The notes: generated by a model from the letters alone, not told the origin. A stretch of DNA of 64,000 nucleotides from a virus (IMGVR_UViG_3300037010_002844:64001-128000), one strand, 5' to 3'; shown: positions 1 to 36,300, counted from the first letter of the stretch. Numbers and translations are program-made.

Positions 1-254
1 CAAGCCTTCCAGACCGCTGGTGCTCCACCGGGGATGTCATTGACGTTCCGTGACATGGAGCGATACCATTCAATCTCACGAGCCACGTAGTCCTGATTGA
101 CCGTTCCGAAGATCGATGTTTCGTTAGCGATGAACGTAGCACCGACGACCTCGATCATCTTGCAACCAGACTTGTCAGTAACGTGTTCCTGGCGTTCCTT
201 GAGGTCCTTAAACAAGGAGCGAACATCGGCAACCTTGTATTGAATTTGAATCAA
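1..254 (-). CDS. dCMP hydroxymethylase (T4 gp42-like), N-terminal part; ORF continues past the window start; TTG start at 252-254 directly after the stop of the upstream ORF
   Basis: Minus-strand translation LIQIQYKVADVRSLFKDLKERQEHVTDKSGCKMIEVVGATFIANETSIFGTVNQDYVAREIEWYRSMSRNVNDIPGGAPAVW aligns position-by-position with T4 gp42 (recalled: ...DKTGVKTIEIIGASFVADEPFIFGALNDEYIQRELEWYKSKSLFVKDIPGETPKIW...). Not in the supplied ORF track because it lacks an ATG start. Confidence 0.7.
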   Translation of the reverse strand, partial: MIQIQYKVADVRSLFKDLKERQEHVTDKSGCKMIEVVGATFIANETSIFGTVNQDYVAREIEWYRSMSRNVNDIPGGAPAVWKA

Positions 255-443
255 CTATTCCTCCACGCTTCTCGATGTTTTGATTACCAGCGATCCATTC
301 TTTAGACTCACAAGCTCCAAGAGCACCGGTTCTTGTTGGGAAGGTAGAAACCCAGCAAACTTCGCAGTGTCGACATGTTCTCTTAGAGCAGTGCGTAGAT
401 CATTACTGCTTGTAACAGCGTGTGTTGTTTCGATGATTTTCAT
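255..443 (-). CDS. small hypothetical protein (62 aa from internal Met; ATGA overlap with the upstream epimerase stop)
   Basis: ORF 255..491 in track; the Met at 441-443 overlaps the TGA of 440..1399 in an ATGA arrangement (translational coupling). Confidence 0.3.
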   Translation of the reverse strand: MKIIETTHAVTSSNDLRTALREHVDTAKFAGFLPSQQEPVLLELVSLKNGSLVIKTSRSVEE

Positions 444-1399
444 GTGTGCAGCTTCAATACCTTGGTCCACGACCAGTTGTCCTCGTACCACTTGATGGTG
501 CGGTCCAAGCCGTCCCAGAATCGTACCACGGGGATGTACCCGAGTACACGCTCAGCTTTCGAAACGTCGGCCTGCGTGTGCATCACATCACCCGGGCGCC
601 AAGGGGCATCGACATAGGAAGCGCCCGGATAACGACGCTTGAGCTCCTCAAGGATCTCTTTGTTCGTCGTTCGATCACCGCACGCCACGTTGAATGTTTC
701 GGCTCCAAGCTTTCCAGAATACGTGGCTGCCTTCATGCAGGCTGACACCACGTTGTCCACGTAACACATGTCACGGGACTGTGAGCCGTCACCGTCGGAG
801 CGCATAGGCACGCCTTTCTTGATCGCCGTCAACCACGCAGAAACCGCAGTAGCGTACGGTGAATCGCCGAGTTGATTGGGTCCGAAGACGTTGAAGAACC
901 GCATGCAGGCTGAGTCGAGACCGTAAAGCTCGCTGTACAACCGCAGATAGTCCTCAATGATCGCCTTCTGCAGAGCATAAGGCGACTTGGGATTCCGTGG
1001 AAAAGTCTCAGGGGTCGGCAGCACATCAGCGCCTCCGTACACAGATGAGCTGGAGGCGAAGACGACGTGATTGACATTGCCCTTGCAAGCCTCCAGGAGG
1101 AGCAATGTCTTGTCGACGTTGACCTCATGCGTTCTCAAGGGATAGAGGACTGAGTAAGAGACCCGCGGGACCGCCGCCAGGTGAATGACCGTGTCAAACT
1201 CCTGACGCCTGATCCGATCGAGGACCGTGGAGTTCGCAAAGTCGTTGGGTTGAAAGCGCACTGCGATGGGCGATGGCAAGAATTCGCGGTGACCGTTGCT
1301 CAGGTCATCGACGCAGGTGACGTGCCACCCAGCATCTAGACACGCCTTCGTCAGGTTCGAACCTATAAAACCCGCGGCACCCGTAATCAAAACTCTCAT
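440..1399 (-). CDS. NAD-dependent nucleotide-sugar 4-epimerase (GalE-like, extended SDR)
   Basis: N-terminal Rossmann motif VLITGAAGFIGSNL and catalytic YxxxK (SPYALQK). The 319-aa length fits UDP-sugar 4-epimerases. Confidence 0.8.
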   Translation of the reverse strand: MRVLITGAAGFIGSNLTKACLDAGWHVTCVDDLSNGHREFLPSPIAVRFQPNDFANSTVLDRIRRQEFDTVIHLAAVPRVSYSVLYPLRTHEVNVDKTLLLLEACKGNVNHVVFASSSSVYGGADVLPTPETFPRNPKSPYALQKAIIEDYLRLYSELYGLDSACMRFFNVFGPNQLGDSPYATAVSAWLTAIKKGVPMRSDGDGSQSRDMCYVDNVVSACMKAATYSGKLGAETFNVACGDRTTNKEILEELKRRYPGASYVDAPWRPGDVMHTQADVSKAERVLGYIPVVRFWDGLDRTIKWYEDNWSWTKVLKLHT

Positions 1400-1431
1400 G
1401 AGGTCATTATATGCCTCACAGAGTCCTTAGT

Positions 1432-2226
1432 TCAACGGGTCGTGTTTAGCGACAAAAAGATGGTACCCCGGACAGGGTCAGCATCCAAGACACCACGAAT
1501 TGACGGGCTGGTGTAGTCGGCAAACAAACCCTCATCGGAAGTGTCTGCTAGGATCGCAGCAGGATCCTCGATCGAGGACTCAAATCCAAGCTTTATCATG
1601 ACCTCATCAAGATATATTGACACTTTCATGCACTGCTCGGGCGGAACCATCATACTGCACTTCGTCTTCAACGTCTTTGCATCCGGCATGGGCGAACAGG
1701 TGACCTTCGTCCCCTTGAGGCGTATGGCCTCACGCACAGCATTGACGACCTCAGTCAGCGTCTTCGGAGCCTTCTTGATGAGAGCAGTTGTCTTCGAACC
1801 CGACATCACGGAAACGACGGCCGTTGCCAGTGCCTTCGGATCGAACTTTGCGGGCCTGTGACCTGGGGCATAGTTCATGGCGTTGAAGTAACTGTCCGCC
1901 ATGTCAAGAACTGCATCGTGAACGTAGAACTCGACCATATCGAGCCACGTATCATGGCGTTCTGCAGGATCACGGATGCCAGACATCTCGGCCTCGATAT
2001 TGGTCCACGCCTCGTAAATCGCGCCGAAGATGGGCCCACCTTCGTAATCCTCATCGAGGGCCTCGTCGACGAGATCATCCGGCGCACCGGCCTGTTCGAG
2101 CGCCATGGCAAATGCCTTGCGAAACTCGGAAAATGACTTCGGAGGCGCTGCAGCGGCCTCCATGAGGTTGGCTACGACGGCGAGTACCTCTTCACGGATC
2201 ATTTGAACAAGCTCTGACTTCTTCAT
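1432..2226 (-). CDS. hypothetical protein (264 aa)
   Basis: Long ORF with coding-like composition; no recognisable motif. Confidence 0.5.
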   Translation of the reverse strand: MKKSELVQMIREEVLAVVANLMEAAAAPPKSFSEFRKAFAMALEQAGAPDDLVDEALDEDYEGGPIFGAIYEAWTNIEAEMSGIRDPAERHDTWLDMVEFYVHDAVLDMADSYFNAMNYAPGHRPAKFDPKALATAVVSVMSGSKTTALIKKAPKTLTEVVNAVREAIRLKGTKVTCSPMPDAKTLKTKCSMMVPPEQCMKVSIYLDEVMIKLGFESSIEDPAAILADTSDEGLFADYTSPSIRGVLDADPVRGTIFLSLNTTR

Positions 2227-2553
2227 CGGCGGAGTCTCCCTGGCAGGTAATTATTACCTTAGGCGGAGGGGGCCTATAACTAGGCCTACACTTCTCGCAA
2301 GAGTGCCCTTGAAATTGCCAGACGACCACCGAAATTGATGTTTTTGAACTCAGCACTAACGAGTCCCCCACAGAATACGCAAGAATCCGTGGGTCTGACG
2401 GGCACTTTCTTTAGCTCTTCGATGCGCTTCTTTTCTTTCTCACGGGCAGCCTCAGCAACCTCTTTGAAGCGCTTTTCTCTTTATTTGCAGGTAGACTGTC
2501 GAGCCACCTCGCGAAAATGAATTGATCCATGTGATCGGGATCTTTATCGTTCT

Positions 2554-3891
2554 TCACAGCAGGTCCATGCGCTTCATCGCCATCGGCGTCGTGGCCTCGT
2601 ACGAACATCGAGCTCGGACGACCGTCCGCAGACGATCGAGCCAGTCCTTCATGTACGCAGGTCGTTCCTTGATGTTATGAATCAAAGCTGAAGCAATGTG
2701 ATGCAGATCCTTGAAGTCCGGCGACGCCAAGAAGGGCCACTTACTGGCCTCCTGAGCGATGCTCGAATATTCGAAGTTATCGATCCACAGAGGCATACAC
2801 CCGAGCTCAATGCATTCTCGAGCGGCGGTGCCCCCATAGGTGTCCTGATCATAGAGGCTGACAGCGATGTCAGCCTGACGACAGATGACCTTGAACTCGT
2901 CGCGGTTAAAGGCATCCGGGACCAATGAAACGTAGCCATTAGGCCCGCACTCCTTCTCGAGCTCGTGGTTGAAGAACTTCTGGCTGGGGTTGCCCGCTAG
3001 CACAACGAAGTCCTGGCGCAGTTCACGGAGTTTCGGCAAGATGTCAAACATGAACTTGCCACAGTTGGTGTAGTCCGACGAACGACCGCGCCCGCCGACA
3101 CGGTTCGGGACGAAGAGGATGACCTTGCCTTCGGCGTGCCAGCGATTCAACAGGTCGGGATCAAACCTGACGTTGCTCATGTCGGGCTTAGAGTTGATCT
3201 CCTCGGCTGAGTAACCATCGTCCCAGGGATCCGACTTCATCAAGATGTCATTGACAATGTCCCGCTTCAGGACATTGTCAGCCTCGCGCTCGAACTCCTT
3301 CAAGGCCGAGGGACACTGCCAGAAGTTCCAGTCAGCCTTTATGGCTGCCTCAAGCTGGCCGAACCAGAGCGAGGCCTCTTCCGGAAACTTGGGACAAGAA
3401 GGTACGTCGACGAAGTGACTGTGCACGTAAAACCTGGGCCTATAACCACCAGTCACGTGGAACAACGCCTTGAAGTTGCGAAGGTGCATTGGGTCGTTGA
3501 TGTAGACCGCGTCCCACTTGGGCTTTTTGCCGATCTTCTGCATTCCGAGATCAAGGGCACTGGCGAGTGCCGACCAGTTGAAGTCGTACCGTGTCACCAA
3601 CGCGTTGGCGATGATCTCGTGCTCGATGAAATTCAGACGGCGCTCGCCATCCTCACCGTACTTGGCCCACAGGTCAGCATTGACATCCCGGGGATCTGTG
3701 ATAACCTGACGACCAGCGGGATCACCCGTCTTGGGGCACATCACGTCAATGTGAAGGTCAGGATTGAGCTTCAGCATTTCACGGACGCGGCCCATCACCA
3801 TCTGCCATCCTGAGTCACATTCGAGCAGAAACTTACCGTAGGTATTGTAATTGCTCAACTGTGTCTCGATCAAGAGCCTCTTGTGTTCCAT
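2554..3891 (-). CDS. hypothetical 445-aa protein; candidate glycosyltransferase for modified DNA bases (weak)
   Basis: Large ORF lying between the epimerase and the methyltransferase-like/kinase genes. A Rossmann-like stretch VILFVPNRVGGRGRSSDYTNCGKF suggests a GT-B-like fold, but no firm family match. Confidence 0.45.
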   Translation of the reverse strand: MEHKRLLIETQLSNYNTYGKFLLECDSGWQMVMGRVREMLKLNPDLHIDVMCPKTGDPAGRQVITDPRDVNADLWAKYGEDGERRLNFIEHEIIANALVTRYDFNWSALASALDLGMQKIGKKPKWDAVYINDPMHLRNFKALFHVTGGYRPRFYVHSHFVDVPSCPKFPEEASLWFGQLEAAIKADWNFWQCPSALKEFEREADNVLKRDIVNDILMKSDPWDDGYSAEEINSKPDMSNVRFDPDLLNRWHAEGKVILFVPNRVGGRGRSSDYTNCGKFMFDILPKLRELRQDFVVLAGNPSQKFFNHELEKECGPNGYVSLVPDAFNRDEFKVICRQADIAVSLYDQDTYGGTAARECIELGCMPLWIDNFEYSSIAQEASKWPFLASPDFKDLHHIASALIHNIKERPAYMKDWLDRLRTVVRARCSYEATTPMAMKRMDLL

Positions 3892-4169
3892 GAAGCAGTA
3901 TCTACTACTTGTTTATCAAGTTGTATTGGGTTGAAGGAAAAGGCAAGCGATCAGGCCAAGCGACAAACGTCGATCAATCGCTATGGCGTCAAATGCTATG
4001 CAAGCACCTGAAGCTCTAGAAAAAAGACATGTCTCGAACACAGACTATAGGCAACACATTGGGTGCAATAATCTTGCCTCCACACTTTTTGCTTCCATGA
4101 GAAGACACTCCATACCATAGTGGTTCTTGTAGTCAGAAGTGTCTTTCCCATAGTAGCAACAGGGGTGCA

Positions 4170-4916
4170 TCAGGTCGCCTTCTTGTAGACACGAGTGTTC
4201 TTGCGGTAGAAGCTCGCAAAGGCACACTTCAGGCGATTGCCCTTACCTGGCACCTTGAGGTTGGCAAATGCAGCTGACAACGCGGGATCGACCACGTACC
4301 CGCGGGTCGCCATCTTCTTGATGACCTCGTCGACCGGTTGGCAGTTGACATGGTGACGCCCCCACTGTGGGTGCCAATCTGGCCCTCCCGGCAGGCGCTC
4401 GCCCAACCGATTGACCTTCAACGTCAAGTTGGCATCATAGGTACCCCAGCCCGAGGCCACGCCGAAGACTACGAGCCTCGGATCCGGCGACAACAGGCAG
4501 TCCAAAAAGTTCGACTCTTTGTCATGAGTCACGTGTTCCATCGCCTCGAGCGACATGCAGACATCGCGTGAGCCCACCGTCAGGTTCTGAGGCGACACAG
4601 TCCCAATGTCGATCTTTTGGAAGTTCTTGACATCGATCCTCAGCTGATTGACGTCAGCGAAGCCATCGCAGCCCCAGACCGGGATGCTGCCCTCGAGCGG
4701 CTCCAACCAATCACCTTGACCGCAGCCGAAGTCGGCAATCGACTCAGCCTTCAGAACATTCAAAACGAAATCCTTCCACGCCGGTAGCCCGTGAGCGAAA
4801 TACTGCCGACCATCGTCAAAGAAGCCACTGTCGTAATTGATGGGTTTTGCCATGTCAGTCCTTGTTAAGGAAGTCGATGATTTCCTCGGTCTCGCGGGCG
4901 AGGTTCTCGTCGTCAA
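4170..4916 (-). CDS. SAM-dependent methyltransferase-like protein
   Basis: Class I MTase motif I IADFGCGQGDW followed by an acidic residue pattern. Confidence 0.55.
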   Translation of the reverse strand: MTTRTSPARPRKSSTSLTRTDMAKPINYDSGFFDDGRQYFAHGLPAWKDFVLNVLKAESIADFGCGQGDWLEPLEGSIPVWGCDGFADVNQLRIDVKNFQKIDIGTVSPQNLTVGSRDVCMSLEAMEHVTHDKESNFLDCLLSPDPRLVVFGVASGWGTYDANLTLKVNRLGERLPGGPDWHPQWGRHHVNCQPVDEVIKKMATRGYVVDPALSAAFANLKVPGKGNRLKCAFASFYRKNTRVYKKAT

Positions 4917-5394
4917 CGTTCAACCTCAAGATCCTGCACTTCGACCAACTTGCAAATTCCTCATAGGCGCTGTGAAGGCTGGTCAGCAGCTCTTCTCCAA
5001 TGCTAGGGTCGAGGTCGTCCTTGATACCCGCGTAATTGGAGCGTTGCGCAAAGATCACGCGAGCGCCCAATGATGCCCATGCCTCGTCCATGTGTCGCAG
5101 CATCATCAAGTCGGTCTCACGGCCAAATACCTTTGCATATGCATACTCACACGGAAAGCCTCGGTCGAAGATGACACTGTAGCCCGTTTGCTTCAACAGG
5201 TCATATACACGGGGATCTGCGAAACGCAGTTGATTCAAGAATTTGTCGTTCTTGGTGACCCGCGAGCTTAGAAATGAGGTGTATTCTGAGGTCGCCTTGA
5301 AATACGGAATGCCAGTTACCCGCGAAAGCTCGCGGGCCATCTCGGTCTTACCACAACGATCTGGTCCGACAAAAAACGTTAGTGATTGTTTCAT
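4855..5394 (-). CDS. P-loop kinase (dNMP/NMP-kinase-like)
   Basis: Walker A FFVGPDRCGKTEMA at the N-terminus; ~180-aa kinase-sized protein. Confidence 0.55.
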   Translation of the reverse strand: MKQSLTFFVGPDRCGKTEMARELSRVTGIPYFKATSEYTSFLSSRVTKNDKFLNQLRFADPRVYDLLKQTGYSVIFDRGFPCEYAYAKVFGRETDLMMLRHMDEAWASLGARVIFAQRSNYAGIKDDLDPSIGEELLTSLHSAYEEFASWSKCRILRLNVDDENLARETEEIIDFLNKD

Positions 5395-5509
5395 TTACTT
5401 CCTTCCAGATTACGTCTGGATCTTGACGGGCAAGATCAAATACAATCTTGGGAAATCAACATCTGTTACTACACGAAACTCTATCCCGCGTTACGCCATG
5501 CCGATTATC

Positions 5510-6079
5510 TTAAACCGTGGGAATCGGCGTGTTCAGCTCGGGCGCATCTTGCACGTTTTCATAGTTCACGTAGAGCCCGTGACTGCCCACGCCCTTGCGC
5601 ACGTGTCCCAGGGACTCGCAGAAGACCACGTACTGCGCCAGCTGTTCCTCAACCTTCGACACCTCACCCACCTGGTCCTTGCCACGGTGCTTAAAGGTCA
5701 CACGTTGGCCCACAGAATATTTGGGAGTAACCCCATGGTGGTTTACCCATTCCGCGATCAGAGAATTGTGAGCCTTGATTCGCATGTAAGCTACATCCTC
5801 CAAGAGGTGGAGGAGCTCGTGATCAACCTCCCAGTAGTGAATGTTGTCCAACATCTTGGCAATGTCGTACGCATCGTCGTCGAACCTGACGGCACTTCTC
5901 AGGTCATCATGGATCTCCTTCAGGTAGGATTTCTCAAACTTGTCGGTGTCATCGCCCGCGGACTTCATCCACTGAATGACGCGTGGCATCAGGGCATCGA
6001 GCAGGCGCTCGAGCACCTCGGGATCCGTGCGATTCGGGCGAGGCGGCCAACCGCAGCCGAAGAGGACCTGCTGCTTCAT
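5510..6079 (-). CDS. hypothetical protein (189 aa)
   Basis: ORF with coding-like composition. Confidence 0.45.
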   Translation of the reverse strand: MKQQVLFGCGWPPRPNRTDPEVLERLLDALMPRVIQWMKSAGDDTDKFEKSYLKEIHDDLRSAVRFDDDAYDIAKMLDNIHYWEVDHELLHLLEDVAYMRIKAHNSLIAEWVNHHGVTPKYSVGQRVTFKHRGKDQVGEVSKVEEQLAQYVVFCESLGHVRKGVGSHGLYVNYENVQDAPELNTPIPTV

Positions 6080-6344: not shown

Positions 6345-9300
6345 ATGAAGGTCACCCTGGGCACATTGCGCGAGTCAATCCTAGAAAGCTACGTTGAGAT
6401 TCTCGTCGAAGGCCGCATAGAAGACGCCCGTGAACGGTACCCTGACATTTCCGACGAGGACTTCGATGACCTAGTCGAGAATCAGCCGCAAGGGTCCAAC
6501 AACAAGTACCTGATGTGGTGTGCCAAGCAGGTCGACGATGGCTTTTCAGTCAACGTCGTCGTCCAGAACATGCGATTGTTCGACGGCAACAAGCAGCGAC
6601 TCGAGAAGAAGGACATCAACCAGTATGAAGATCCCAGCGCCATCGAGACCGCTGTCCAGGCCTTGGGTGGCAAGTCGAAGAGCCAGGAGTCCAAGCAGGC
6701 CAAGGCTGATTCTGACGTGATCTACAATGATGATCACTGGTTGGTCATCCGTCCTCACACCATGGGAGCCTCCTGCAAGTACGGCATCGGAACCAAGTGG
6801 TGCATTGCAGCGACCACGAGCCACAACTACTTCTCGACGTATTCAACCAGCAACAACAAGTTCTACTTCGTCATTGACAAGACGCAGTTGCAGACCACAC
6901 CCCCGCCTCCGAGTTCCAAGTACGCCATCGTCATTCGTGACGAGGCGGGCCGCAATAATGAGGCCTACGATGCCTCTGACAAACGAGTCCCGGTATCGAC
7001 AGTTGCTAAACACGTGGGCGTCGAGTGGCCGGCAATCTGGTCAAAGATTGAGGCTCACGTCAAGAAGGTCCCACTGACCCGTGAGGTTGAGGACGAACAA
7101 CGCGCGGTTGAGGAGCATGTCAATGACCTGATGGCGGGCAAAGACGTGTCTTCGCAGGCGCTACAAAAAATCGCCAAGAGTGCCAAGATGACGTTGCGGG
7201 TGGTGCAGAAGGTCTATGATCTCGCGGCGAAGAAGGTCGAGACCGGAGAAGACAAGTACATGCTTTCATTCTTGATGTATGCGCTCAGCGACAACATCGG
7301 CAACTTGACGCCCGATGCGGCGATGTTCTTCATTCAGAAGATCGGCGATGGCGGCAACAGCTACTACATCAAGCGGGCCATCGAACATGCCAACCTGACA
7401 GAAGAGAACTTCACGCAGTTGGTGAAGAGCGGCAACGAGGCCGTCATCGCGGCCATCATGGAGAATCCACGCGCTCCTGACGCATTGAAGGACGAGATCG
7501 TTAAGGTCATTCCGAACTTCAAGAATGACATGGCAAAACACGATGCATGGTGGGCCTTGATCAAAAGCGGGCGCTACACGCTTGAGCAGTTCAAGGAAGC
7601 CGTGGAAAGCAGCTCTGCTTCACATTACCACGTCGTCGCAGGTCAGGTGTTGAGACACATTGACGAACTGAACTTGACGCCCGAGCAGCTCATGTTGATC
7701 CCCGTCACTGACGAATACGACCTGAAGAACATCATGAAGGCACCCAACCTGCCACCGGCTCACCTAGGTGCCTTGATCGTTAAGCTCCGTGACAAGTTGT
7801 CGACGCAGTTCTTGATCAAGTTGTTGAAGCAGTCGAACATCGACTCTGACACTGTCGAGTTGTTGTGGAAGTCGGTCACGCCCGACATCAGGACGGCGCT
7901 ATTGCAGAACCCGTCGATCGGAGCGTCAAATGCCAGCAAGTTCGCCCTCAGCAAGAATCACGCCTACCGCTTTGCGGTGGCCCACAATCCGGTCACGCCC
8001 AAGGAGGACCTAGCTGTCCTCGCAGGTGATGAGTCGACTTCTACGCGGGCCGCGGTGGCTGCTAACCCCAACACGCCCGTTAATGTTCTGAAACAGCTAT
8101 CCCGCGATGAGGCCGTCGCCATCCGCGCGGCTGCCGCGTCAAATGCCGCTGTCGGCAACGATGTCCTGCAGGCCTTGACCAAAGACAGCGACAACTTCGT
8201 CAGGAGGGTCGCTCGCAAGACTCTGAAGTCCCTAAAGGTCGCTGAGGCCTATGTCAAGGCTGCGATGGGCATGCGTAGGATCTTGTTGGAAGAGCTCAGC
8301 GACGAAAACGAGAACCAGGACATCATGAATCCCTCCTGGCGCGACATCTCGACAAAGTCTCTCAAGTCTGACGAGTTCATTGTCATCTTCTTGCTGCAGA
8401 ACAACGGCCACGCCACCCGCGAAGAAATCGAGTCAGCATGGTTTGACTGGATGGGTCGCCTGGTTCGACGCCACGATTTGTGGAAGAGCACTCAACACGG
8501 CAAGGAACCCGTGCGAGGCATCAATGCCAGCGGCTCAGCTTGGTACTGGGCACCGCCGGGTATCGACAAGGGCGCGCTGTTCCAGCTGACGCCCGCGGGC
8601 GCGGCTGCTGCCATGCATGCCCTGAACAAGGTTCGTGGCAGCGTTGAGCCAAGGCGCTCTGAGGTCGGCTCGGCCGGCGCACGCCCGGGCAGGACGTACT
8701 ACATCAGCAATGATGTCTCGGCTTTTGACATCACCGGCCGCGAAAATGACGAGATCGAAAGTGAAGAGATCGAGGTCAATCGTTACTCTTCCGAGCCCGT
8801 CATCCGCGGTGGCAAGTACACGAAGTTGTCACCGAATCGCAGCCGTGCGTCCAGGATGCGCACCAAGGGCGCGGTCTACTGGAAGTTCACGAGCCCGAAT
8901 GGCCGTGAGACGTACACCAAGAACCTACCTCAGGTTGCCTTGAAGCGCGGTGCCGAGGTCACATACGTCAAGGCTGTCCATGCTCCGGGTAGCGGTGGTC
9001 ACCCGTACAACATGGCGATGGTCAAGTATGGCGACAGGTACCTGTTGACCGCATTCCCGTTGATGACGACGGCCTCGGGCGCCCGTGAGGAAAATGCACC
9101 AGAAAACGTGGCGCCGCCGATTAAGAAGTCGCCGCCGTCGAAGGCAACAGCTGCCGCGCCCGCCGCAGCTGCAGCGATTGAGCCCACGGCAGCCAAGGGT
9201 CCGAAGACGACCTACAAAATCTACGGCCGATTCAAAGGTCACCCGGCCGCGACGCGATTGAAAGGTCAAGCCTACGTGGCCGGACAAGACACGCAGTTCT

Positions 9301-9404
9301 CGGCCGGTGAGCAGGCAGTCATTTCCAAGACGGACGACGGCAAGCTCAAGGTCAAGAAGGCTGACTCGGATCACAGCCAGATCTGGGAGCCGATTGACGG
9401 CTAA
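6345..9404 (+). CDS. large (1019-aa) protein with leucine-rich-repeat-variant/HEAT-like repeats and an Ala/Pro-rich tail
   Basis: Repeats of the form NPxTPxxxLxxLxxDxxxxVRxAAAxN (e.g. HNPVTPKEDLAVLAGDESTSTRAAVAANPNTPVNVLKQLSRDEAVAIRAAAASN). The N-terminal region carries GASCKYGIGTKWCIAATTSHNYFSTY. The C-terminal quarter is Ala/Pro/Lys-rich low complexity. Confidence 0.7.
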   Translation: MKVTLGTLRESILESYVEILVEGRIEDARERYPDISDEDFDDLVENQPQGSNNKYLMWCAKQVDDGFSVNVVVQNMRLFDGNKQRLEKKDINQYEDPSAIETAVQALGGKSKSQESKQAKADSDVIYNDDHWLVIRPHTMGASCKYGIGTKWCIAATTSHNYFSTYSTSNNKFYFVIDKTQLQTTPPPPSSKYAIVIRDEAGRNNEAYDASDKRVPVSTVAKHVGVEWPAIWSKIEAHVKKVPLTREVEDEQRAVEEHVNDLMAGKDVSSQALQKIAKSAKMTLRVVQKVYDLAAKKVETGEDKYMLSFLMYALSDNIGNLTPDAAMFFIQKIGDGGNSYYIKRAIEHANLTEENFTQLVKSGNEAVIAAIMENPRAPDALKDEIVKVIPNFKNDMAKHDAWWALIKSGRYTLEQFKEAVESSSASHYHVVAGQVLRHIDELNLTPEQLMLIPVTDEYDLKNIMKAPNLPPAHLGALIVKLRDKLSTQFLIKLLKQSNIDSDTVELLWKSVTPDIRTALLQNPSIGASNASKFALSKNHAYRFAVAHNPVTPKEDLAVLAGDESTSTRAAVAANPNTPVNVLKQLSRDEAVAIRAAAASNAAVGNDVLQALTKDSDNFVRRVARKTLKSLKVAEAYVKAAMGMRRILLEELSDENENQDIMNPSWRDISTKSLKSDEFIVIFLLQNNGHATREEIESAWFDWMGRLVRRHDLWKSTQHGKEPVRGINASGSAWYWAPPGIDKGALFQLTPAGAAAAMHALNKVRGSVEPRRSEVGSAGARPGRTYYISNDVSAFDITGRENDEIESEEIEVNRYSSEPVIRGGKYTKLSPNRSRASRMRTKGAVYWKFTSPNGRETYTKNLPQVALKRGAEVTYVKAVHAPGSGGHPYNMAMVKYGDRYLLTAFPLMTTASGAREENAPENVAPPIKKSPPSKATAAAPAAAAAIEPTAAKGPKTTYKIYGRFKGHPAATRLKGQAYVAGQDTQFSAGEQAVISKTDDGKLKVKKADSDHSQIWEPIDG

Positions 9405-9739: not shown

Positions 9740-10067
9740 CTGCGATCCTTTCTTCCTCGAGGCACCTGTTGTCGCGCTCCGTCCTCTCCATCGTCTCTTC
9801 CCACTGTTGTTCAGCGGCTTCCCAAGCCTCGGCCCACTGTCGGAGTGCGTCCGCGTTGGGCACGCCCTCGTCATTCATAGCTTCAGGTCCTCCAAAGACG
9901 CAGAGATATGACTGTTGTGTGCCGTGGCCCCACAGTTGCACGGAGCGTAGCCCTCGTGATCGCATTCAGCTGGGCACGAGTCCGAGTGCCCGCGGTGGTT
10001 GCCAGCGAGACCTTGGCACGGACTATCTTCTCGATCAACTGTTCGTAGGTGTACATGGGTTTTATGT

Positions 10068-11198
10068 TTACGTGATTTCCCTCAACTTCCAGACCGTCGT
10101 CGACGCGCCAAAGTCGTCCCTCTTGACCTCGGCACAACACAGGATGAAGGGGTCAGGAAGCTCCTTGCCGCCCCAGACAGAAATCTTCGTGGCCTTGCCA
10201 GTGGGTCCAACCGCAAAGATTTGCACATATTCCTTGCCATTGCGGGTCTTCTTCTTGATGCCCGTCACCGGCTTGCCACCCTTCTTTGCAGCAACAGGGG
10301 CCGTGACAAACCAGACGACCGCCGTGTCACCGTGCTCCAGGTCGTCAATGCTATTGACGCCCTTCTTCTCCAAGGCAGCCAAGATTTCGATGTCAATCAT
10401 GGCGGTGACGTCCAAAGCACCGAAGACGTCGACCATATTTTGAGCACGTTCAGAAGACGACCAGTCCTCGATGTCAGCGTAGTCCCTGACCAACTGGTAG
10501 AAGTTCTTAAGGCCCTCGTGCGGGTCAGACTTCGGGTGTCGCTTGATCAACGCCCCGTGATCGATGTCGACCTCTTCGGTGACCTCGACGCCCTTGCGCT
10601 TCTTGGTCACGGTCTCCACGTGAGAACCGAAGAGGACCTCGTGCATGTGATGATAGTTGTTGAAGACCTTGCCTTCGCCCACGATGTCCATACTGCCGAA
10701 GGCACCGATCTTGACCAGGGCCTCCATCGCCTTCTTGTTGAACTTGCTGTGTTTCCACTCGAAGTTGTCATCCCACAGCAACTCCTCGATAGTGTTGTAG
10801 GGACGGTTGGCCATGATCTCTTCGACCGCCGAGTCGCCGACACCCTTGCAGGACGTCATCGACGGCATCAACTTCTTGCCGGGCAGCGCGGTCCACCCGA
10901 GCCCCGCCAGGTTGATGTCGATCGGGACGATCTGATAGCCCAAGGCCTTTACCTCGCTGAACGCCTTAGCACGTTGAGCAGGAGTGTGCGACATGCTTTC
11001 GAGATAGGCACACAGCCATTCCTCCTCGTGATATGTCATCAGCCAGGCGCACCAGAAGCTGTCAATGGCGTATGCCACTGCATGGCTGTTAGACGTCAGT
11101 ATCCCGTTAGCGAGATAGAACTGGTGATCCGGGTGATCGACTTCGAGGTCATAGGTCTGGTGTCGACCCACGGGTGTGATAGACTTGATGTTACTCAT
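10068..11198 (-). CDS. dnaE: DnaE (Pol III alpha) piece H: split-intein C-half (IntC, 11088..11198) plus C-terminal extein
   Basis: Starts MSNIKSITPVGRHQTYDLEVDHPDHQFYLANGILTSN (Hint blocks F/G) then SHAVAYAIDSFWCAWLMTYHEEEW. This matches the DnaE motif [28 protein letters not shown], continuing into the C-terminal OB region. Confidence 0.85.
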   Translation of the reverse strand: MSNIKSITPVGRHQTYDLEVDHPDHQFYLANGILTSNSHAVAYAIDSFWCAWLMTYHEEEWLCAYLESMSHTPAQRAKAFSEVKALGYQIVPIDINLAGLGWTALPGKKLMPSMTSCKGVGDSAVEEIMANRPYNTIEELLWDDNFEWKHSKFNKKAMEALVKIGAFGSMDIVGEGKVFNNYHHMHEVLFGSHVETVTKKRKGVEVTEEVDIDHGALIKRHPKSDPHEGLKNFYQLVRDYADIEDWSSSERAQNMVDVFGALDVTAMIDIEILAALEKKGVNSIDDLEHGDTAVVWFVTAPVAAKKGGKPVTGIKKKTRNGKEYVQIFAVGPTGKATKISVWGGKELPDPFILCCAEVKRDDFGASTTVWKLREIT

Positions 11199-11419
11199 GT
11201 GAGCAGGTCCTTCAACAGGTCTTCGATCGCTCCTGCGTTCGGTTCATCAAGCATTGCTTTAGCATACTCTTCTTCAATGTACTCGTCAGTCGGCTGGAGT
11301 TCAACCTTCGTTTCGCTTTTGCGTCGGTAACGTGCCGCGGCCCGTAACAGTTCGATCGGACTCAGACCCATGCGTTGGGCAATGTCATTCAGTGCGATTT
11401 CAAACGGCGGTCTTTTCAT
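11195..11419 (-). CDS. small hypothetical protein (74 aa) between HE4 and the IntC of piece H
   Basis: ORF MKRPPFEIALNDIAQRMGLSPIELLRAAARYRRK...; possibly a helix-turn-helix fragment. Confidence 0.35.
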   Translation of the reverse strand: MKRPPFEIALNDIAQRMGLSPIELLRAAARYRRKSETKVELQPTDEYIEEEYAKAMLDEPNAGAIEDLLKDLLT

Positions 11420-12449
11420 ACGCTTTTCCTATCCGATGAACGCCAGGTCGAGGATCTTTCAGGATCTCAAAAAGCTTTTTCAAGCAATCAGGTTCGAAGC
11501 GACCGCCATCCTTGTATGAGAACTGATCGTAAGAAATTCGAATGAGTGTCCAATCATGTTTAGTGATGTAATCATCAAGCATTGCATCCATGCACTTCAC
11601 TCGTTCAAAATTATCCTCGCCTTTAATACGTGCATTAAAATGGATGATTCCATCAAATTCAACATAAATGTGTCTTGATCGATCGGCAATGTCAACTTGC
11701 TTTCTTTTAGATTTGTTTGGAAAAGCAACTGACTTGACGACCTGATTATGAACAAAATCATAACCTTCAACGTTTTTCAACAAATCAAACAACGCTAATT
11801 CCGGAATGCTATGCCAAATAGCATGTGCAGCTTTTGTGCACTTTTCGTAGAACTCATCGGGGTTCAACTCACGCCAACGGGCCAGGCGCTCAGCACGTGC
11901 CTTGAGTATCTCAGGCCGGGTTGACGTTAGTCTTGCAACGTCTGATGAACGTTTACGGGCTTCAGGTCGTCGATTAAGTTCTCCCATTAGTTCAGAGCGA
12001 CGTTTCCTCTCGCCCGGATTGCTCGTGATGGCCTCACTGACCGCACGGCCCATCTTTTCCTTGTAGGCAGTCAAATCATCACCGCGTGCCTTCGCTCGTT
12101 TGAGCCAGGCGAAATTCTGCCCACGATGCTTGAAACGCGCTGTCGAGACTTTCGATGTGATTGCGGCAGTCGGGTACGCTTTCAGGTATTCTTCTTTGCT
12201 CATACCATGCGTCCCCGACAAGTGCTTTGCCAGTGCCTTACCCGTGAAGCCACAGACTTGGCATGTGACACTCTCACTGTCACCGAGTATGAATCCTTGG
12301 CACCTAGCTTGGTGTTTTTCGTAGGCCTTCAGGTAGACGAAGAGCCTGCTACATCGGTCACAACGATGCTGAGGCCCCGTTCGGCAATCATCCACAGGGG
12401 CAACATCTCGTTTGTCTCCTTCGTCCTGAACTTGTGATCCCACGTGCAC
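11400..12449 (-). CDS. free-standing homing endonuclease HE4, Vsr-like (EDxHD-type) nuclease core
   Basis: C-terminal core RSRHIYVEFDGIIHFN...WTLIRISYDQ (the Vsr-like 'vEfDG..H' motif). The N-terminal Cys/His-rich region has CDRCSRLF and CQVCGF. The annotated start overlaps the IntN of piece G in another frame, so the real start is probably internal. Confidence 0.75.
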   Translation of the reverse strand: MHVGSQVQDEGDKRDVAPVDDCRTGPQHRCDRCSRLFVYLKAYEKHQARCQGFILGDSESVTCQVCGFTGKALAKHLSGTHGMSKEEYLKAYPTAAITSKVSTARFKHRGQNFAWLKRAKARGDDLTAYKEKMGRAVSEAITSNPGERKRRSELMGELNRRPEARKRSSDVARLTSTRPEILKARAERLARWRELNPDEFYEKCTKAAHAIWHSIPELALFDLLKNVEGYDFVHNQVVKSVAFPNKSKRKQVDIADRSRHIYVEFDGIIHFNARIKGEDNFERVKCMDAMLDDYITKHDWTLIRISYDQFSYKDGGRFEPDCLKKLFEILKDPRPGVHRIGKAYEKTAV

Positions 12450-13030
12450 TTTACCTTCTCTCCGGTCACCAACTCCACTTCTACCAAGTCTAGCTCACCG
12501 TGGTCGTGTTTTGCAACAACAGGGACGAGGATGTTTTTACCTGAATTCTCATCACGAGACATGACCAGGTCGCCGGGTTCGATGTGTTGAAGCTGCTTTG
12601 TCTCTTTGAACGTGCCGTCTGAAAAAAAGGTATTTACTGGTTCCGAAAAGTACAAACTTTTATTGAAGCCGTAGCCCGCGAAGTACAGAATCTTGTCGTA
12701 GAGGTTGTTGGCCACCTTCTCGGTATAACCGTTGGCGATGCAACCCTTGACGAACCCGTCACGGGTCTCTTGGGCTGCCTTCTTTGCCGCCTCACCGCCC
12801 GAGATGCTGCGCTTCATGATTGCGCGACGGACCTCGTCACACTTGTCCTTCGGGAAGCCGGCAGCCTTCTCGGCGAGTTCCATCACCTGTTCCTGAAAAA
12901 TTATGCAGTTATGCACGAGAAGGCCATTTGCGAAGAAGTTGTTGTTCTTCTTGACCTGGATGTCGTACACAGGCTGTGCAGGAACACGCTTGATCGCACG
13001 GATCTTGACGGGAACTACGTCAGGCATCAC
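12329..13030 (-). CDS. dnaE: DnaE piece G: IntC (12908..13030) + 83-aa extein (12659..12907) + IntN (12332..12658)
   Basis: IntC ...PVYDIQVKKNNNFFANGLLVHN, then CIIFQEQVMELAEKAAGF...VRRAIMKR...YFAGYGFNK (DnaE: IILYQEQVMQIAQ...LRRAMGKKK...KFAGYGFNK), then IntN SLYFSEPVNTF...TWDHKFRT (blocks A/B). Confidence 0.85.
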   Translation of the reverse strand: MMPDVVPVKIRAIKRVPAQPVYDIQVKKNNNFFANGLLVHNCIIFQEQVMELAEKAAGFPKDKCDEVRRAIMKRSISGGEAAKKAAQETRDGFVKGCIANGYTEKVANNLYDKILYFAGYGFNKSLYFSEPVNTFFSDGTFKETKQLQHIEPGDLVMSRDENSGKNILVPVVAKHDHGELDLVEVELVTGEKVKCTWDHKFRTKETNEMLPLWMIAERGLSIVVTDVAGSSST

Positions 13031-13344
13031 TTACGCTCCGTTTCACGATGAGTCTGACAAACAATGTGTAATGACATTGAGCGCGACAAAGCATCACTGC
13101 CTAGAACGACTCGGCAAGGGTTGAGATTTTCCCCCACATGACGCATCCATTCTTGCAAAGCGTTGATCAATCGTTGGGCTTCGTTGAAACCCTCATGCGA
13201 GGGTGGAAACTGACAGCAACCTACCAAATCTCTAGTCCCAGGATCATATGCAATGATTCGCAAATTCCCATGAACGTTCATCTCTAGCGTTAGAGATCCA
13301 TAAACATCGTCATCGATCTCGCTAGTGTAAAGATCTGCGCTCAT
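13027..13344 (-). CDS. small hypothetical ORF (105 aa) in the F|G inter-fragment spacer
   Basis: Track ORF; no motif. Confidence 0.3.
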   Translation of the reverse strand: MSADLYTSEIDDDVYGSLTLEMNVHGNLRIIAYDPGTRDLVGCCQFPPSHEGFNEAQRLINALQEWMRHVGENLNPCRVVLGSDALSRSMSLHIVCQTHRETERK

Positions 13345-13345
13345 A

Positions 13346-13591
13346 TCATTTTTCTTTCATGTTCAATGATGATGCGCAGAGTTGGCACACTGGTCCATCA
13401 ACACTCAAAACACGTTGACCATGGTATTCGAGCTCCATATCATTTCCGACCTCTTCATAAGCTCGAAATGTGTCGAACCAGTCGGCATACGTGAGATCAT
13501 CACGCTTTCCAAATGCCGTATGTGACTTCATCGTGTTGATAAAGTTCTTGAACGACGTAAGCAACTCCTCTTCAAAATCATCAATCTTCAT
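13346..13591 (-). CDS. small hypothetical ORF (81 aa) in the F|G inter-fragment spacer
   Basis: Track ORF; no motif. Confidence 0.3.
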   Translation of the reverse strand: MKIDDFEEELLTSFKNFINTMKSHTAFGKRDDLTYADWFDTFRAYEEVGNDMELEYHGQRVLSVDGPVCQLCASSLNMKEK

Positions 13592-13662
13592 GTCTAAATT
13601 GTCCTCAATTTGAGGTGATAGTTCAAGGCATCAGACTCCCAGACGCGGTACACCGTGAAGCC

Positions 13663-13830
13663 TCAAGTTCTTGTGGCAAGCGTCCATAATTGATCAAGCC
13701 TAAATTGCTTCTTCATCGCAGGTGTTAGTTCATGCTTCGCTGGGTTACTGTGCCAATAGTCGCCGTCGTACTCGATGATGAGGTTGAGTGATGGCACGAC
13801 GAAGTAGCCTGGTTTCAGTACTTCATTCCC
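13663..13830 (-). pseudogene. truncated Vsr-like homing-endonuclease remnant (nuclease-core fragment only, no start codon)
   Basis: Third-frame translation NEVLKPGYFVVPSLNLIIEYDGDYWHSNPAKHELTPAMKKQFRLDQLWTLATRT* contains the 'IEYDGxYWHS' Vsr-like motif. It overlaps the 3' end of piece F and has no upstream Met. Confidence 0.5.
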
Positions 13831-14414
13831 AAAATCTCGTCTTCAGACGTCAGTTCACCTGCTTGCACCCAACCACGAGGCGTCATGACAAGGTGATCTT
13901 CAGTCAAAGACAAAGTTTCTCCACCCTCCAGCTCAACCTCGATGATGTCACGTACGCCGTTTGAGGCGACAGCGACAACTTCGTCCATCTCGACGGTCTT
14001 CGTCATTTCATTGTATGACGGAAGCTTAGTTCCCACCATTCCTTGTTCAACGATTTGTCTAATGGGAACCTCACCTTGCTCAGTAAGGATATGTGTGTCA
14101 CCCGTCAAACACGAGTATGTCTTCTTCAGGATGTCGTTGACGCGGTGATCGCCCCACTCCAACTCCTTGCCGTCATTCTTCGCCTCCAAGTACAGTCGAT
14201 CGACTTTGGCGGCCAAGGGACCCGGGCGATAGATGCTGGTCAGCGTCGCGATGTCGATGATGCTCTTGGGCTTGCCTTTGACAAAGAGTCGCTGAGCGCC
14301 CTGGCCCGTGCAATTGTGAACAACGACGTCGTTAGCGACGAAATTATGATGATTTCGCACCTCGATGTCGTAGACGTGGCGCTTACCCACGCTGCGTGAT
14401 GACACAAGCTTCAA
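13815..14414 (-). CDS. dnaE: DnaE piece F: IntC (14313..14414) + 67-aa extein (14112..14312) + IntN (13818..14111)
   Basis: IntC MKLVSSRSVGKRHVYDIEVRNHHNFVANDVVVHN; extein CTGQGAQRLF...IATLTSIYRPGPLAA...ILKKTYS (DnaE 'ALFRPGP' and '..TYG' motifs); IntN CLTGDTHILTEQG...SLTEDHLVMT. Confidence 0.85.
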   Translation of the reverse strand: MKLVSSRSVGKRHVYDIEVRNHHNFVANDVVVHNCTGQGAQRLFVKGKPKSIIDIATLTSIYRPGPLAAKVDRLYLEAKNDGKELEWGDHRVNDILKKTYSCLTGDTHILTEQGEVPIRQIVEQGMVGTKLPSYNEMTKTVEMDEVVAVASNGVRDIIEVELEGGETLSLTEDHLVMTPRGWVQAGELTSEDEILGMKY

Positions 14415-15171
14415 GCGTCGTCTCCTTCTTTTCTAGCAACTGTAGGTCATATCCACTGACAAGTGCACACTTGAGCGTCGGATGCAACGTTACGAATGCG
14501 TCAAACTTCTCCCTAGCATCATCACGCCACCAGCCCTTGACTTCCACGTACACCCGCTTAAAGAGCTCCAACGTCGGTCATTGACGATGGAAGATCATGT
14601 ACGCCTCTCTTGTGAGCTGGATCCTGATCTCCTCCTCGCTGAAGCCCTCGTCCATGCAATGACGCCAGTTGTCATACAGGTCGACGACGCCATTCTTTCC
14701 GTTCCCGTTGCCCGCTGAGTGCAGAAAGTACAAAGGGGCGCTACGATGAGCGGAGCGCGTCCGTACAATCACATGTTGCGGAGTCGTGGGCCTGTTGCGT
14801 CTCTGTAAGGCGACATGGCCACGGTCGCGGCGAAACCTGCGACCAAAACGCCCGCCTCACGTCAATCCACGAGCTTCGTAACCACTGCTAGACCCAATCA
14901 ACTCGTCGTCTTCGGTTAGGTGCTGTGCCTCAACCCACCCGCGATTCTTCGTCAAGATGGGATGATCAGCGGTGCAGACAAGCTTCTTGCCGTCGTCGAA
15001 CACGAGCTCGATGCACTCCTTGGGTCCTTGGTCGTAAACGACGTCGACGACTGATGTGGTGAACTGCTGCTTGACTTCATCGAAGACCGTCACCTCGTCA
15101 CCGACATGGACGTCCTTGATCAACTTGTACGAGTCATCGCCCATCAGCACTGCCGTGTCCTGGTCGACGCA
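14313..15171 (-). mobile_element. split-intein site 5 (E|F): IntN 14860..15171, decayed mini-nuclease gene 14383..14772, IntC 14313..14414
   Basis: As above; the intervening nuclease gene carries an in-frame stop. Confidence 0.7.
14383..14772 (-). pseudogene. mini PD-(D/E)XK nuclease gene (paralog of 23817..24137 and of the HE1 C-terminus) interrupted by one in-frame TGA at 14578..14580
   Basis: Track ORFs 14578..14772 and 14383..14571 are in the same frame, separated by a single TGA. The joined product ...YMIFHRQ*PTLELFKRVYVEVKGWWRDDAREKF aligns with the paralog ...HQIFVHDESVYYEIKGRWSDKACY, which has no stop at that position. Confidence 0.5.
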
Positions 15172-15333
15172 CTGGAAGATGCCTGCCCACTTGCCTTTCT
15201 CGTAGACCTCGTAAGGTTTGGGATCGGTGAAATCAATGACGGCCGGGTGCATGTGCTGCTCGAACCAGGTCTTGATGTCATTGAATGATACCGCATTTGT
15301 ATGTGCGTCAACGTTAGCAACGACTTTTGCCAT
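14857..15333 (-). CDS. dnaE: DnaE piece E: 54-aa extein (15172..15333) + IntN (14860..15171)
   Basis: Extein ...VIDFTDPKPYEVYEKGKWAGIFQ (DnaE 'IPLDD...TAVFQ'); IntN CVDQDTAVLMGDD...CTADHPILTKNRGWVEAQHLTEDDELIG. The first 13 aa, MAKVVANVDAHTN, resemble a vestigial block G. Confidence 0.8.
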   Translation of the reverse strand: MAKVVANVDAHTNAVSFNDIKTWFEQHMHPAVIDFTDPKPYEVYEKGKWAGIFQCVDQDTAVLMGDDSYKLIKDVHVGDEVTVFDEVKQQFTTSVVDVVYDQGPKECIELVFDDGKKLVCTADHPILTKNRGWVEAQHLTEDDELIGSSSGYEARGLT

Positions 15334-17116: not shown

Positions 17117-17151
17117 ATCGTCGAGTTGGATCTCAAACCACCCTCTTTCAT
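15352..17151 (-). CDS. free-standing homing endonuclease HE3: Zn-finger + NUMOD3 repeats + Vsr-like nuclease + conserved C-terminal domain
   Basis: C2H2-like CPQCNDPLRKASLNSLRAHLLKKH. NUMOD3-like repeats (...SETDDRIKRRSERIGE...). Nuclease core GRIAIECNGVYWHSE. The C-terminal ~200 aa (ARKLHL...HLDGN...VVGGMSRL...RFWWTD...DRF) is shared with HE2. The annotated N-terminus overlaps piece D, so the real start is likely internal (~17118). Confidence 0.8.
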   Translation of the reverse strand: MKEGGLRSNSTMERHEASTATNESSPATGAPSLRGSSGPAMTSCPSRCPQCNDPLRKASLNSLRAHLLKKHGLNAEAAYLLFREHPGPCVQCSGPVKFMTFQTGYERLCGVCSKKNSQVRGALSRKSKSLPAWNKGLSETTSESVRRAAQGCRDFIKKHGHWRTGQTKENNESITRAAHNISRALTEKWQVEKHWTQHGQTSETDDRIKRRSERIGEGVRLNHWSRNANSEDIKRSIIETRKRLIENGTNSPFRLSLEEVERRVDALRSRWNIEKFEFAGYSTPVHVTCVSCNVPDIVPFNVLYKGKVCSTCYPANFSRWHREVFDFFVKLDSNAIANDRQSIAPYELDIVSGNGRIAIECNGVYWHSEATGTPPSYHQDKSTRALERGVSLLHIFDDEWHHDVKKNIIKSMIRVKLGLATRVMARKLHLRSGRPAITAQFMANNHLDGNTPSSHSFWLEDIAGNIICALTLRKPHQQTKWGSKTIELARVSTARDTIVVGGMSRLINAARDWSREHGYQKMITYRDMRLGGTGRAYELSGFRFDHMTQPRFWWTDGQNRIDRFAVRAIPGIASQEEMAMEHRLFKIFGCSNAVYVMDL

Positions 17152-36269: not shown

Positions 36270-36300
36270 GTTACAATTCTATTCCACTGAATCGTGAAGT

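Follow-up and report, generated by a model that had tools for sequence, protein, structure and literature searches.

This study focused on a 64,000-nucleotide stretch of viral DNA (IMGVR_UViG_3300037010_002844:64001-128000; the window), the beginning of which probably encodes the central part of a module for DNA hypermodification. Genes for a T4-type dCMP hydroxymethylase, a nucleotide-sugar 4-epimerase (EPI), a predicted glycosyltransferase of 445 residues (p445), and a nucleotide kinase (KIN) are clustered there, and a UDP-glucuronate decarboxylase (UXS) is encoded some distance away. Our tentative proposal is that the virion DNA of this phage clade carries xylosyl- or L-arabinosyl-5-hydroxymethylcytosine (hmC), possibly O-methylated, produced by UXS, a novel DNA-glycosyltransferase family, and perhaps EPI, and that the module is one of a large set of interchangeable clusters. 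If true, that set combines two clades of thymidylate synthase (TS) homologs and two unrelated glycosyltransferase families with optional genes for UXS, a mutase, a second short-chain dehydrogenase/reductase (SDR), and a methyltransferase. The features named in an initial annotation of the window were all present on the minus strand, with matches far beyond chance, and the principal ones are as follows.

1..254, minus strand: start of a T4-type dCMP hydroxymethylase gene (TTG at 254; 84 N-terminal codons), which continues beyond the window start
440..1399, minus strand: EPI, NAD-dependent nucleotide-sugar 4-epimerase of the extended SDR type, WbpP/WbgU/TviC-like (Pfam Epimerase, E 6e-51)
2554..3891, minus strand: p445, 445-aa GT-B (GT4-like) glycosyltransferase according to a structure model, candidate hmC-DNA glycosyltransferase
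4170..4853, minus strand: class I SAM-dependent methyltransferase of the small-molecule/O-methyl type (motif 'DFGCGQG'), accessory gene
4855..5394, minus strand: KIN, deoxynucleoside/thymidylate-kinase-like P-loop kinase (phrog_761, E 1e-9)
24212..25234, minus strand: UXS, UDP-glucuronate decarboxylase (UDP-xylose synthase; human UXS1, E 4.5e-83)

All genes of the module lie on the minus strand, and along the direction of transcription their order is a 189-aa protein, KIN, the methyltransferase, p445, a 264-aa protein, EPI, and the start of the TS homolog. The source is a huge (~309 kb) uncultured phage, 309 kb being the length of the longest contig that bears p445. Neither the DNA of the region nor the p445 protein matched any of the 50,697 deposited genomes of cultured phages in INPHARED, which leaves no cultured relative for comparison.

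The modified base

The translation of positions 1..254 belongs to the thymidylate synthase family (phrog_160, E 2e-8), and the complete enzyme of 219 aa was read from contig L013 (L013:5535-6194), which was found by an exact-sequence look-up of the epimerase, is 100% identical to window positions 1..5788, and extends past the window start. It matched the T4 enzyme structures 1b5e/1b49 with an E value of 8e-76 over residues 16-219, and was 52-56% identical to gp42 of Tequatrovirus, but only ~25% identical to the 5-hydroxycytosine (5hoC) synthase of Mosigvirus. Signature residues, which lie outside the window on the identical contig, were located by alignment with ThyA of E. coli, gp42 of T4, and the enzyme of Mosigvirus APCEc01 as a positive control, and comprise 'MSDFIC', 'MRSND', and 'GYKND'; the catalytic cysteine is present.

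Published residue rules state that an Asp at the position of ThyA N177 specifies a cytosine substrate, that an acid at L143 specifies a hydroxymethyl product, and that an Asn at the position of Asp169 marks flavin-dependent 5-hydroxy-dCMP synthases (PMC13326640). The phage enzyme has Asp at the N177 position (cytosine) and at the L143 position (hydroxymethyl rather than methyl), and at the D169 position the Asp is kept, the motif being 'MRSND' as in T4, whereas the Mosigvirus control has 'MRSQN'. Because Asp169 is kept, the predicted product is hydroxymethyl, not hydroxyl, and a TS homolog of the 5hoC type was ruled out by this residue together with the identity to T4-type enzymes. The gp42-type hydroxymethylase of the initial annotation is thus upheld, and a phage hmC pathway is very likely.

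Three further genes of nucleotide metabolism, which lie elsewhere in the window, complete this picture.

40544..40930, minus strand: all-alpha NTP pyrophosphohydrolase, candidate dCTPase/dUTPase (phrog_12184, E 2e-16; phrog_173, E 7.5e-13)
41677..42258: Tmk
42267..43031: ThyX

The pyrophosphohydrolase also matched Pfam dUTPase_2 (E 1e-5), and in a tblastn search 312 phage records were matched, many of them from T4-like phages; its presumed role is to feed dCMP to the hydroxymethylase. A candidate dCTPase/dUTPase alongside a separate ThyX and Tmk, both of which had been annotated in this genome before, fits a nucleotide economy like that of T4, with thymine retained.

The glycosyltransferase and its linkage to the hydroxymethylase

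No match to p445 was found in sequence searches of Pfam, NCBIfam, PHROG, or PDB, and its identity was resolved by a structure model alone. A GT-B fold was modelled confidently, with a nucleotide-sugar-binding C-terminal domain, and the top structural neighbours were BshA, SPS 6kih, and PimA 2gej. On this model p445 is a glycosyltransferase, in agreement with the earlier description of the gene as a candidate transferase. Its family consists of 415 unannotated metagenomic proteins and, in sequence searches and by hhalign, falls outside the described DNA-glycosyltransferase families, namely GT72 AGT, GT63 BGT, and RB69 GT1 (hhalign probability against Mosigvirus GT1, <1%).

A profile search of IMG/VR gave 30 p445 loci. 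KIN was found in every one of them that extended upstream, EPI in 28 of the 30, and a TS homolog no more than ~5.3 kb downstream of p445 in all 28 that extended far enough. In 13 of the p445 loci the place of the T4-type enzyme is taken by a member of another TS clade (TS2), which is ~330 aa long, is ~29% identical to the window enzyme, and has the same acid/Asp/Asp signature. TS2 was seen at the hydroxymethylase position in L002, L010, L011, L108, and most of L204-L246.

The transferase is exchanged as well. A second family, GT404 (Pfam Glyco_trans_1_2), which was reached via a glycosyltransferase near UXS in L039, takes the place of p445 in 43 further loci (L204-L246; for example L026:11654-12697 and L225:10001-11047), together with KIN, EPI, and TS or TS2. 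No sequence relationship was detectable in any pairing of p445, GT404, and the RB69-type GT1. At least 20 of the 43 GT404 loci carry a UDP-galactopyranose mutase gene beside GT404, which predicts furanosyl sugars on hmC, and L228-L237 (for example L229:11034-11942) have, besides the EPI ortholog, a further SDR directly after GT404, which matched Pfam Epimerase (E 2e-49) and shares 28-30% identity with EPI.

Of the 73 loci that were fetched (30 with p445 and 43 with GT404), 68 reach a TS gene, and in all 68 a glycosyltransferase is no more than a few kb away from a TS homolog of the cytosine-hydroxymethylase type and adjoins, or is within a few kb of, a nucleotide kinase. Asp occupies both the 169 and 177 positions in 68/68 of these TS homologs, 67 by automated scan and that of L211 by hand. 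The transferase has therefore stayed near the hydroxymethylase and kinase through non-orthologous replacement of both transferase and TS, and this argues strongly for the modified base as its acceptor. With the acceptor deduced in this way from gene linkage, glycosylation of hmC by p445, and hence glycosyl-hmC DNA, is likely.

The kinase fits the same scheme. A KIN profile built from 22 homologs matched the kinase of the 5hoC cluster of Mosigvirus (APCEc01; hhalign 95.8%, E 7e-9, 140 columns), and also deoxyguanosine kinase 2jaq (E 0.0015) and YorR 2axp/3kb2 (E 0.011); YorR (3kb2) is the top Foldseek match of the kinase of phage DLP3 (PMC13326640, Table 1). Its role would be that of an hm-dCMP kinase. 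The methyltransferase gene, which the initial annotation had recognised as SAM-MTase-like next to the P-loop kinase, starts at the ATG at 4853 and not at 4916. As a single sequence its match was weak, but in a family alignment Methyltransf_23 was matched by 7/7 members (best E 1e-8), and the family profile matched phosphoethanolamine N-MT, HEN1, and Mg-protoporphyrin O-MT. It was found in only 9 of the 30 p445 loci.

The sugar donor

The product of 24212..25234 is, on sequence comparison, a genuine UXS. Human UXS1 was matched with an E value of 4.5e-83, far ahead of GalE-type enzymes (2e-32), UAXS (5e-22), RmlB (3e-21), and ArnA (3e-15), and identity to the rhizobial Uxs family is 53-54%, although no NCBIfam equivalog cutoff was reached. 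The Rossmann GxxGxxG motif 'TGAAGFLGSH' and the catalytic motifs 'STSEVYG', 'YDEGKR', and 'QTRSF' align with those of hUXS1 at positions that are invariant across 19 clade members, and all four motifs quoted in the initial annotation were seen in the alignment. The alternative raised there, a dTDP-glucose 4,6-dehydratase, was ruled out by the much poorer scores of dehydratases (~1e-21).

The 20 kb between UXS and the cluster in the window are taken up by a dnaE gene swollen by inteins and homing endonucleases, plus the insert of a 1019-aa protein gene. In L001 and L004, where dnaE is intact, the order is Dps-like, UXS, dnaE, KIN, p445, EPI, TS, with UXS ~5 kb from KIN, and the order Dps-like, UXS, dnaE, KIN is kept in ~24 loci. 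UXS and p445 share a contig in at least 19 of 30 cases; alone this is weak evidence because the contigs are relatives of one clade. More telling are four GT404 loci in which no dnaE intervenes. UXS overlaps the start of GT404 by 4 bp in L225, where helicase, KIN, EPI, and TS2 follow; it lies ~1 kb upstream of GT404 in L227 (then KIN, EPI, TS2) and ~0.9 kb upstream in L241 (then helicase, KIN, EPI, TS); and in L238 it heads a mostly abutting or overlapping run of six genes, UXS, UDP-galactopyranose mutase (Pfam GLF, E 4.6e-67), KIN, GT404, EPI, and TS2. Starting from UDP-glucuronate (UDP-GlcA), the successive action of UXS, a 4-epimerase, and a pyranose-furanose mutase leads in three steps to UDP-L-arabinofuranose; UDP-L-arabinose is among the substrates of flavin UDP-galactopyranose mutases. 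In L211 the cluster consists of UXS, GT404, KIN, and TS with no epimerase gene adjoining, which suggests that xylose may be used directly.

With this operon-level linkage in relatives as backing, a UXS-derived pentose on the DNA is plausible, the chances being close to even. The link between UXS and the hmC module claimed by the initial annotation thus gained support from genomic context, whereas the conversion of UDP-xylose to UDP-arabinose that it described is only one option.

That conversion depends on EPI. The catalytic Ser/Tyr/Lys are present ('SSSSVYG', 'YALQK'), and the acid of dehydratases or decarboxylases is missing; from these motifs EPI is a 4-epimerase, with the substrate not indicated by them. 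Its closest solved relatives (10ke, 6dnt, WbgU, PelX, and WbpP; E 1e-44 to 1e-54) are UDP-GlcNAc/GalNAc and UDP-GlcNAcA 4-epimerases, and the best NCBIfam model is TviC. The earlier label of 4-epimerase can therefore stay, but not that of a GalE-like enzyme. EPI presumably tailors the sugar donor; that it acts on UDP-xylose is speculative and rather unlikely.

Proposed pathway

The pathway would begin with the NTP pyrophosphohydrolase, which may return dCTP to dCMP. Hydroxymethylation of dCMP is predicted because the enzyme is ~55% identical to that of T4 and has the complete residue signature, and the adjacent dNK/Tmk-like kinase would then phosphorylate hm-dCMP towards the triphosphate pool, from which hmC would be incorporated by the Pol III-type replicase of the phage. 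After replication, p445 would move a sugar from a UDP-sugar to the hydroxymethyl group, as gene linkage suggests. The donor would be tailored by the phage, EPI yielding a C4-epimer and UXS, in the same conserved neighbourhood, turning host UDP-glucuronate into UDP-xylose. The most economical wiring, which leaves no enzyme orphaned, would be UDP-GlcA to UDP-xylose and possibly on to UDP-L-arabinose, giving pentosyl-hmC, and the optional methyltransferase may add a further modification.

Alternative explanations

Several observations count against a pentose. One is the distance of 20 kb that separates UXS from the cluster in the window, and another that the co-occurrence of UXS and p445 inside one phage clade is not independent evidence. 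Viral UXS genes elsewhere adjoin RmlB/RmlD-like (rhamnose-type) SDRs or purine genes (L040, L085), so a link between UXS and the cluster is specific to this group. EPI is 32% identical (106 bits) to the Sinorhizobium Uxe ortholog, compared with 186 bits to the WbpP-like 10ke; it has Thr at the gatekeeper position, where GalE has Tyr299 and the Uxe ortholog Leu, and it lacks the GalE-type insertion. Sequence comparison thus gave no orthology to the characterised UDP-xylose 4-epimerases (Uxe/MUR4). Approximately 20 GT404 clusters combine the EPI family and a UDP-galactopyranose mutase with no UXS within 10 kb, which means that the EPI family can use host UDP-hexose or UDP-HexNAc; these clusters fit a route from UDP-Glc via UDP-Galp to UDP-Galf. 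For both reasons, the arabinose step is the weakest link. More generally, the evidence comes from gene sequences, and as 64 of ~309 kb were seen, the rest of the genome may hold further glycosyltransferases or a UDP-glucose dehydrogenase.

The same facts about EPI lead to a different sugar: EPI would convert host UDP-Glc, UDP-GlcNAc, or UDP-GlcNAcA to the galacto-epimer, and p445 would transfer the resulting hexose or N-acetylhexosamine to hmC, with UXS having an unrelated role or providing another sugar to a glycosyltransferase encoded beyond the window. The substrates of the closest solved relatives of EPI, its small gatekeeper residue, and the UXS-less clusters with mutase and GT404 (fitting UDP-Gal to UDP-Galf) all point this way, and 5hmC adducts of Hex, HexNAc, and HexA that depend on an epimerase have been documented (10.1101/2023.12.21.572611). 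It leaves UXS an orphan, however, even though the gene is a conserved neighbour of the cluster and, in L225, L227, L238, and L241, a part of it, and it sits poorly with L211, where UXS accompanies GT404, KIN, and TS with no epimerase gene adjoining. A hexose or N-acetylhexosamine on hmC is considered unlikely, though not markedly so.

The sugar-nucleotide genes might instead serve host manipulation, or glycosylation of the virion or host surface, with a protein, lipid, or polysaccharide as the acceptor of p445. A survey of huge phages lists the UXS fold only as 'host manipulation', a category in which it places both UDP-glucuronate decarboxylase and glycosyltransferase folds (10.1101/2025.02.27.640493); the UXS genes of unrelated viral contigs are not near any TS homolog, and most GT4 enzymes use acceptors other than DNA. 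Such a role is nevertheless improbable, given that the transferase keeps company with a hydroxymethylase-type TS and a kinase in 68/68 loci despite the exchange of both transferase and TS, that the whole block lies within a replication and nucleotide-metabolism module, and that T4 likewise has beta-GT adjoining gene 42. A base other than hmC under the sugar, with 5-hydroxy-dCMP (RB69-like), 5-methyl-dCMP, or dTMP as the product of the TS homolog, is barely credible, for although the kinase/glycosyltransferase/TS triad is common to 5hoC systems, the D169N rule is based on a limited experimental set (PMC13326640), and the signature was read outside the window on an identical contig, the enzyme is far closer to T4-type than to Mosigvirus 5hoC synthases, has Asp169, Asp177, and an acid at 143, and leaves dTMP synthesis to the separate ThyX.

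Other genes of the window and of related loci

The remaining window is a replication and nucleotide-metabolism module, with an intein-fragmented Pol III alpha, DnaB, an intein-bearing ribonucleotide reductase (RNR), and the ThyX, Tmk, and NTP pyrophosphohydrolase genes described above, as well as two N6/N4 DNA methyltransferases and RNA-repair genes. Two small proteins belong to the cluster itself.

1432..2226, minus strand: 264-aa protein, a variable insert between p445 and EPI
5510..6079, minus strand: 189-aa protein (phrog_17597/11118, function unknown, E 3e-10)

The 264-aa protein had no match in Pfam, NCBIfam, or PHROG searches and, among the p445 loci compared, a homolog was seen in L001 only. 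The 189-aa protein is often encoded upstream of KIN: homologs were seen there in 9 of the 30 p445 loci, and also in L026/L211. Between the modification cluster and dnaE, on the opposite strand, is the gene for the 1019-aa protein (6345..9404, plus strand), which has faint LRV repeats and homologs at the same place in L109 and L112.

The dnaE (Pol III alpha) region, 9999..23762, is broken into many open reading frames (ORFs) amid intein, Hint, and homing-endonuclease domains and also holds a 577-aa plus-strand ORF, while in relatives dnaE is a single gene of 1197-1230 aa (L001:5388-9023, L004:4973-8665, L039:45-3638). The RNR large subunit (44405..48046, 1213 aa) has Pfam Intein_splicing between two Ribonuc_red_lgC matches, indicating an intein. 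The two N6_N4-type methyltransferases (31125..31907 and 32636..33427) mean that the DNA may carry 6mA or 4mC besides the cytosine modification. An RNA-repair-like set at 35101..39718 comprises an RNA ligase (35101..35988), a Zeta-toxin/AAA_33/HAD_PNKP kinase-phosphatase (37671..38675), and an RlaP nucleotidyltransferase (38762..39718).

Two genes upstream of UXS were considered as transferases. One (184 aa) was ruled out as Dps/ferritin-like, and the other (383 aa) was rejected because it showed no enzyme signature. The Dps/ferritin-like protein (26321..26875) is found upstream of UXS in most clade members, usually at ~1-2 kb, and also in the distant relatives L225 and L241. In another distant relative, L039:3952-5971 encodes an R2K-clade ATP-grasp protein and a GNAT-Thg1 fusion directly upstream of UXS, and a Volactin-family actin adjoins UXS at L033:7271-8275. 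A weak tubulin-like ORF is near the cluster at L238:6265-7338, and just beyond the window start, at L013:6657-7751, there are two ORFs of 181 aa each, one of which weakly matched a proteasome-family (HslV-like) Pfam entry.

Significance and comparison with known systems

Sugar-decorated cytosines are a main means by which phages evade restriction enzymes and CRISPR nucleases, and the set of effective defences changes with every new sugar. Among the known cases, T-even phages put glucose on hmC; RB69, DLP3, and RL38J1 put arabinose or hexoses on 5-hydroxycytosine; and Hex, HexNAc, and HexA occur on TET-made 5hmC. If true, a pentose on hmC made via decarboxylation of UDP-glucuronate would be both a new base and a new donor route. 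No report was found in the literature of a phage UXS route to DNA modification, of pentosyl- or xylosyl-hmC, of clusters combining a hydroxymethylase and a mutase, or of the present family of clusters, beyond the papers cited here. Of possibly greater importance is the comparison of loci, since at least 73 viral contigs, many longer than 100 kb, share a core of kinase, glycosyltransferase, and hydroxymethylase around which sugar-tailoring genes and the transferase have been swapped. This set is a ready gene list for heterologous expression and for new DNA-glycosyltransferase tools, and also serves the question of how Pol III-type phage replicases handle hmC.

The T-even glucosyl-hmC system has the closest base chemistry. 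Its hydroxymethylase, gp42, shares the active-site signature of the window enzyme and is predicted to share its product; in both cases a glycosyltransferase of GT-B fold adjoins the hydroxymethylase gene (beta-GT in T4), and the all-alpha NTP pyrophosphohydrolase has a counterpart in the T4 dCTPase, gp56. The differences are that p445 has no sequence similarity to GT72 or GT63, that KIN is dNK/Tmk-like rather than gp1-like, that the phage encodes its own sugar-nucleotide enzymes (a 4-epimerase and UXS), whereas T4 uses host UDP-glucose, and that the replicase is of the Pol III alpha type in a genome of ~309 kb.

Phages that glycosylate 5hmC by pairs of a glycosyltransferase and a partner epimerase are found among those with C5-methyltransferase and TET-like dioxygenase genes (bioRxiv 10.1101/2023.12.21.572611). 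Like the present cluster, their 'subclass II' clusters associate a DNA glycosyltransferase with a donor-supplying epimerase, the products being Hex, HexNAc, and HexA on 5hmC. There, however, 5hmC is made on the DNA at specific sites, whereas here a TS homolog would make it at the nucleotide level, so that replacement is probably global; neither UXS nor a pentose was reported for those clusters.

The uxs gene followed by a 4-epimerase gene (Uxe) and a glycosyltransferase is an arrangement of rhizobia, where the same three activities occur as in the phage. The likeness to the Sinorhizobium meliloti Uxs/Uxe pathway (Gu et al. 2011, cited in PMC6024577) extends to UXS, which is 53% identical to rhizobial Uxs, but the phage EPI is not an ortholog of Uxe (32% identity, another SDR subgroup), and the rhizobial acceptor is a cell-surface glycan.

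Other phages place sugars on cytosine by different routes. Shewanella phage Thanatos has pentosyl-cytosine, made via a UDP-xylose pyrophosphorylase and not UXS (PMC12838424), so that a xylose-type pentose on cytosine does exist in phage DNA. Rhizobium phage RL38J1 (Pootjesviridae) has glycosyl-5hoC and a phage UDP-galactopyranose mutase, a gene also present in the cluster relatives L204-L226 and L238, though not in the window itself. Both differ from the window phage in having TS enzymes of the D169N type, with 5hodC made in an in vivo assay (PMC13326640).

The system of RB69, DLP3, and HY126 (Afh) is the most similar in organisation. RB69 and DLP3 carry arabinosyl-5-hydroxycytosine, the UDP-arabinofuranose of RB69 being derived from ribulose-5-phosphate (PMC13326640), which corrects the statement in the initial annotation that arabinosyl-hmC occurs in an RB69-like phage. 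That annotation also knew of no described phage-encoded UDP-xylose/arabinose supply coupled to hmC; phage-encoded supplies of pentose nucleotides for DNA modification are described for RB69, DLP3, HY126, and Thanatos (PMC13326640, PMC12838424), while the UXS route is not. Phages of this type and the window phage share a module of TS homolog, Tmk-like kinase, and GT-B glycosyltransferase, and supply their own pentose nucleotide, here via UXS as proposed. KIN is detectably homologous to the kinase of the RB69-type triad (hhalign 95.8%), and the DNA arabinosyltransferases of RB69 and DLP3 have the same top structural neighbours as p445 (BshA, 6kih, 2gej), although p445 and RB69 GT1 are unrelated in sequence. 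The pentose here would come from decarboxylation of UDP-glucuronate, as D-Xyl or L-Ara, rather than as D-Araf from ribulose-5-phosphate, and in the Pfam annotation of the window and the flanks seen there was no arabinose-5-P isomerase, bifunctional kinase/uridylyltransferase, or HAD phosphatase. The TS homolog keeps Asp169, which is D169N in RB69 and DLP3. The window phage thus has the combination of Tmk-like kinase, GT-B transferase, and TS homolog that is known from RB69, DLP3, and RL38J1, but with a TS predicted to hydroxymethylate.

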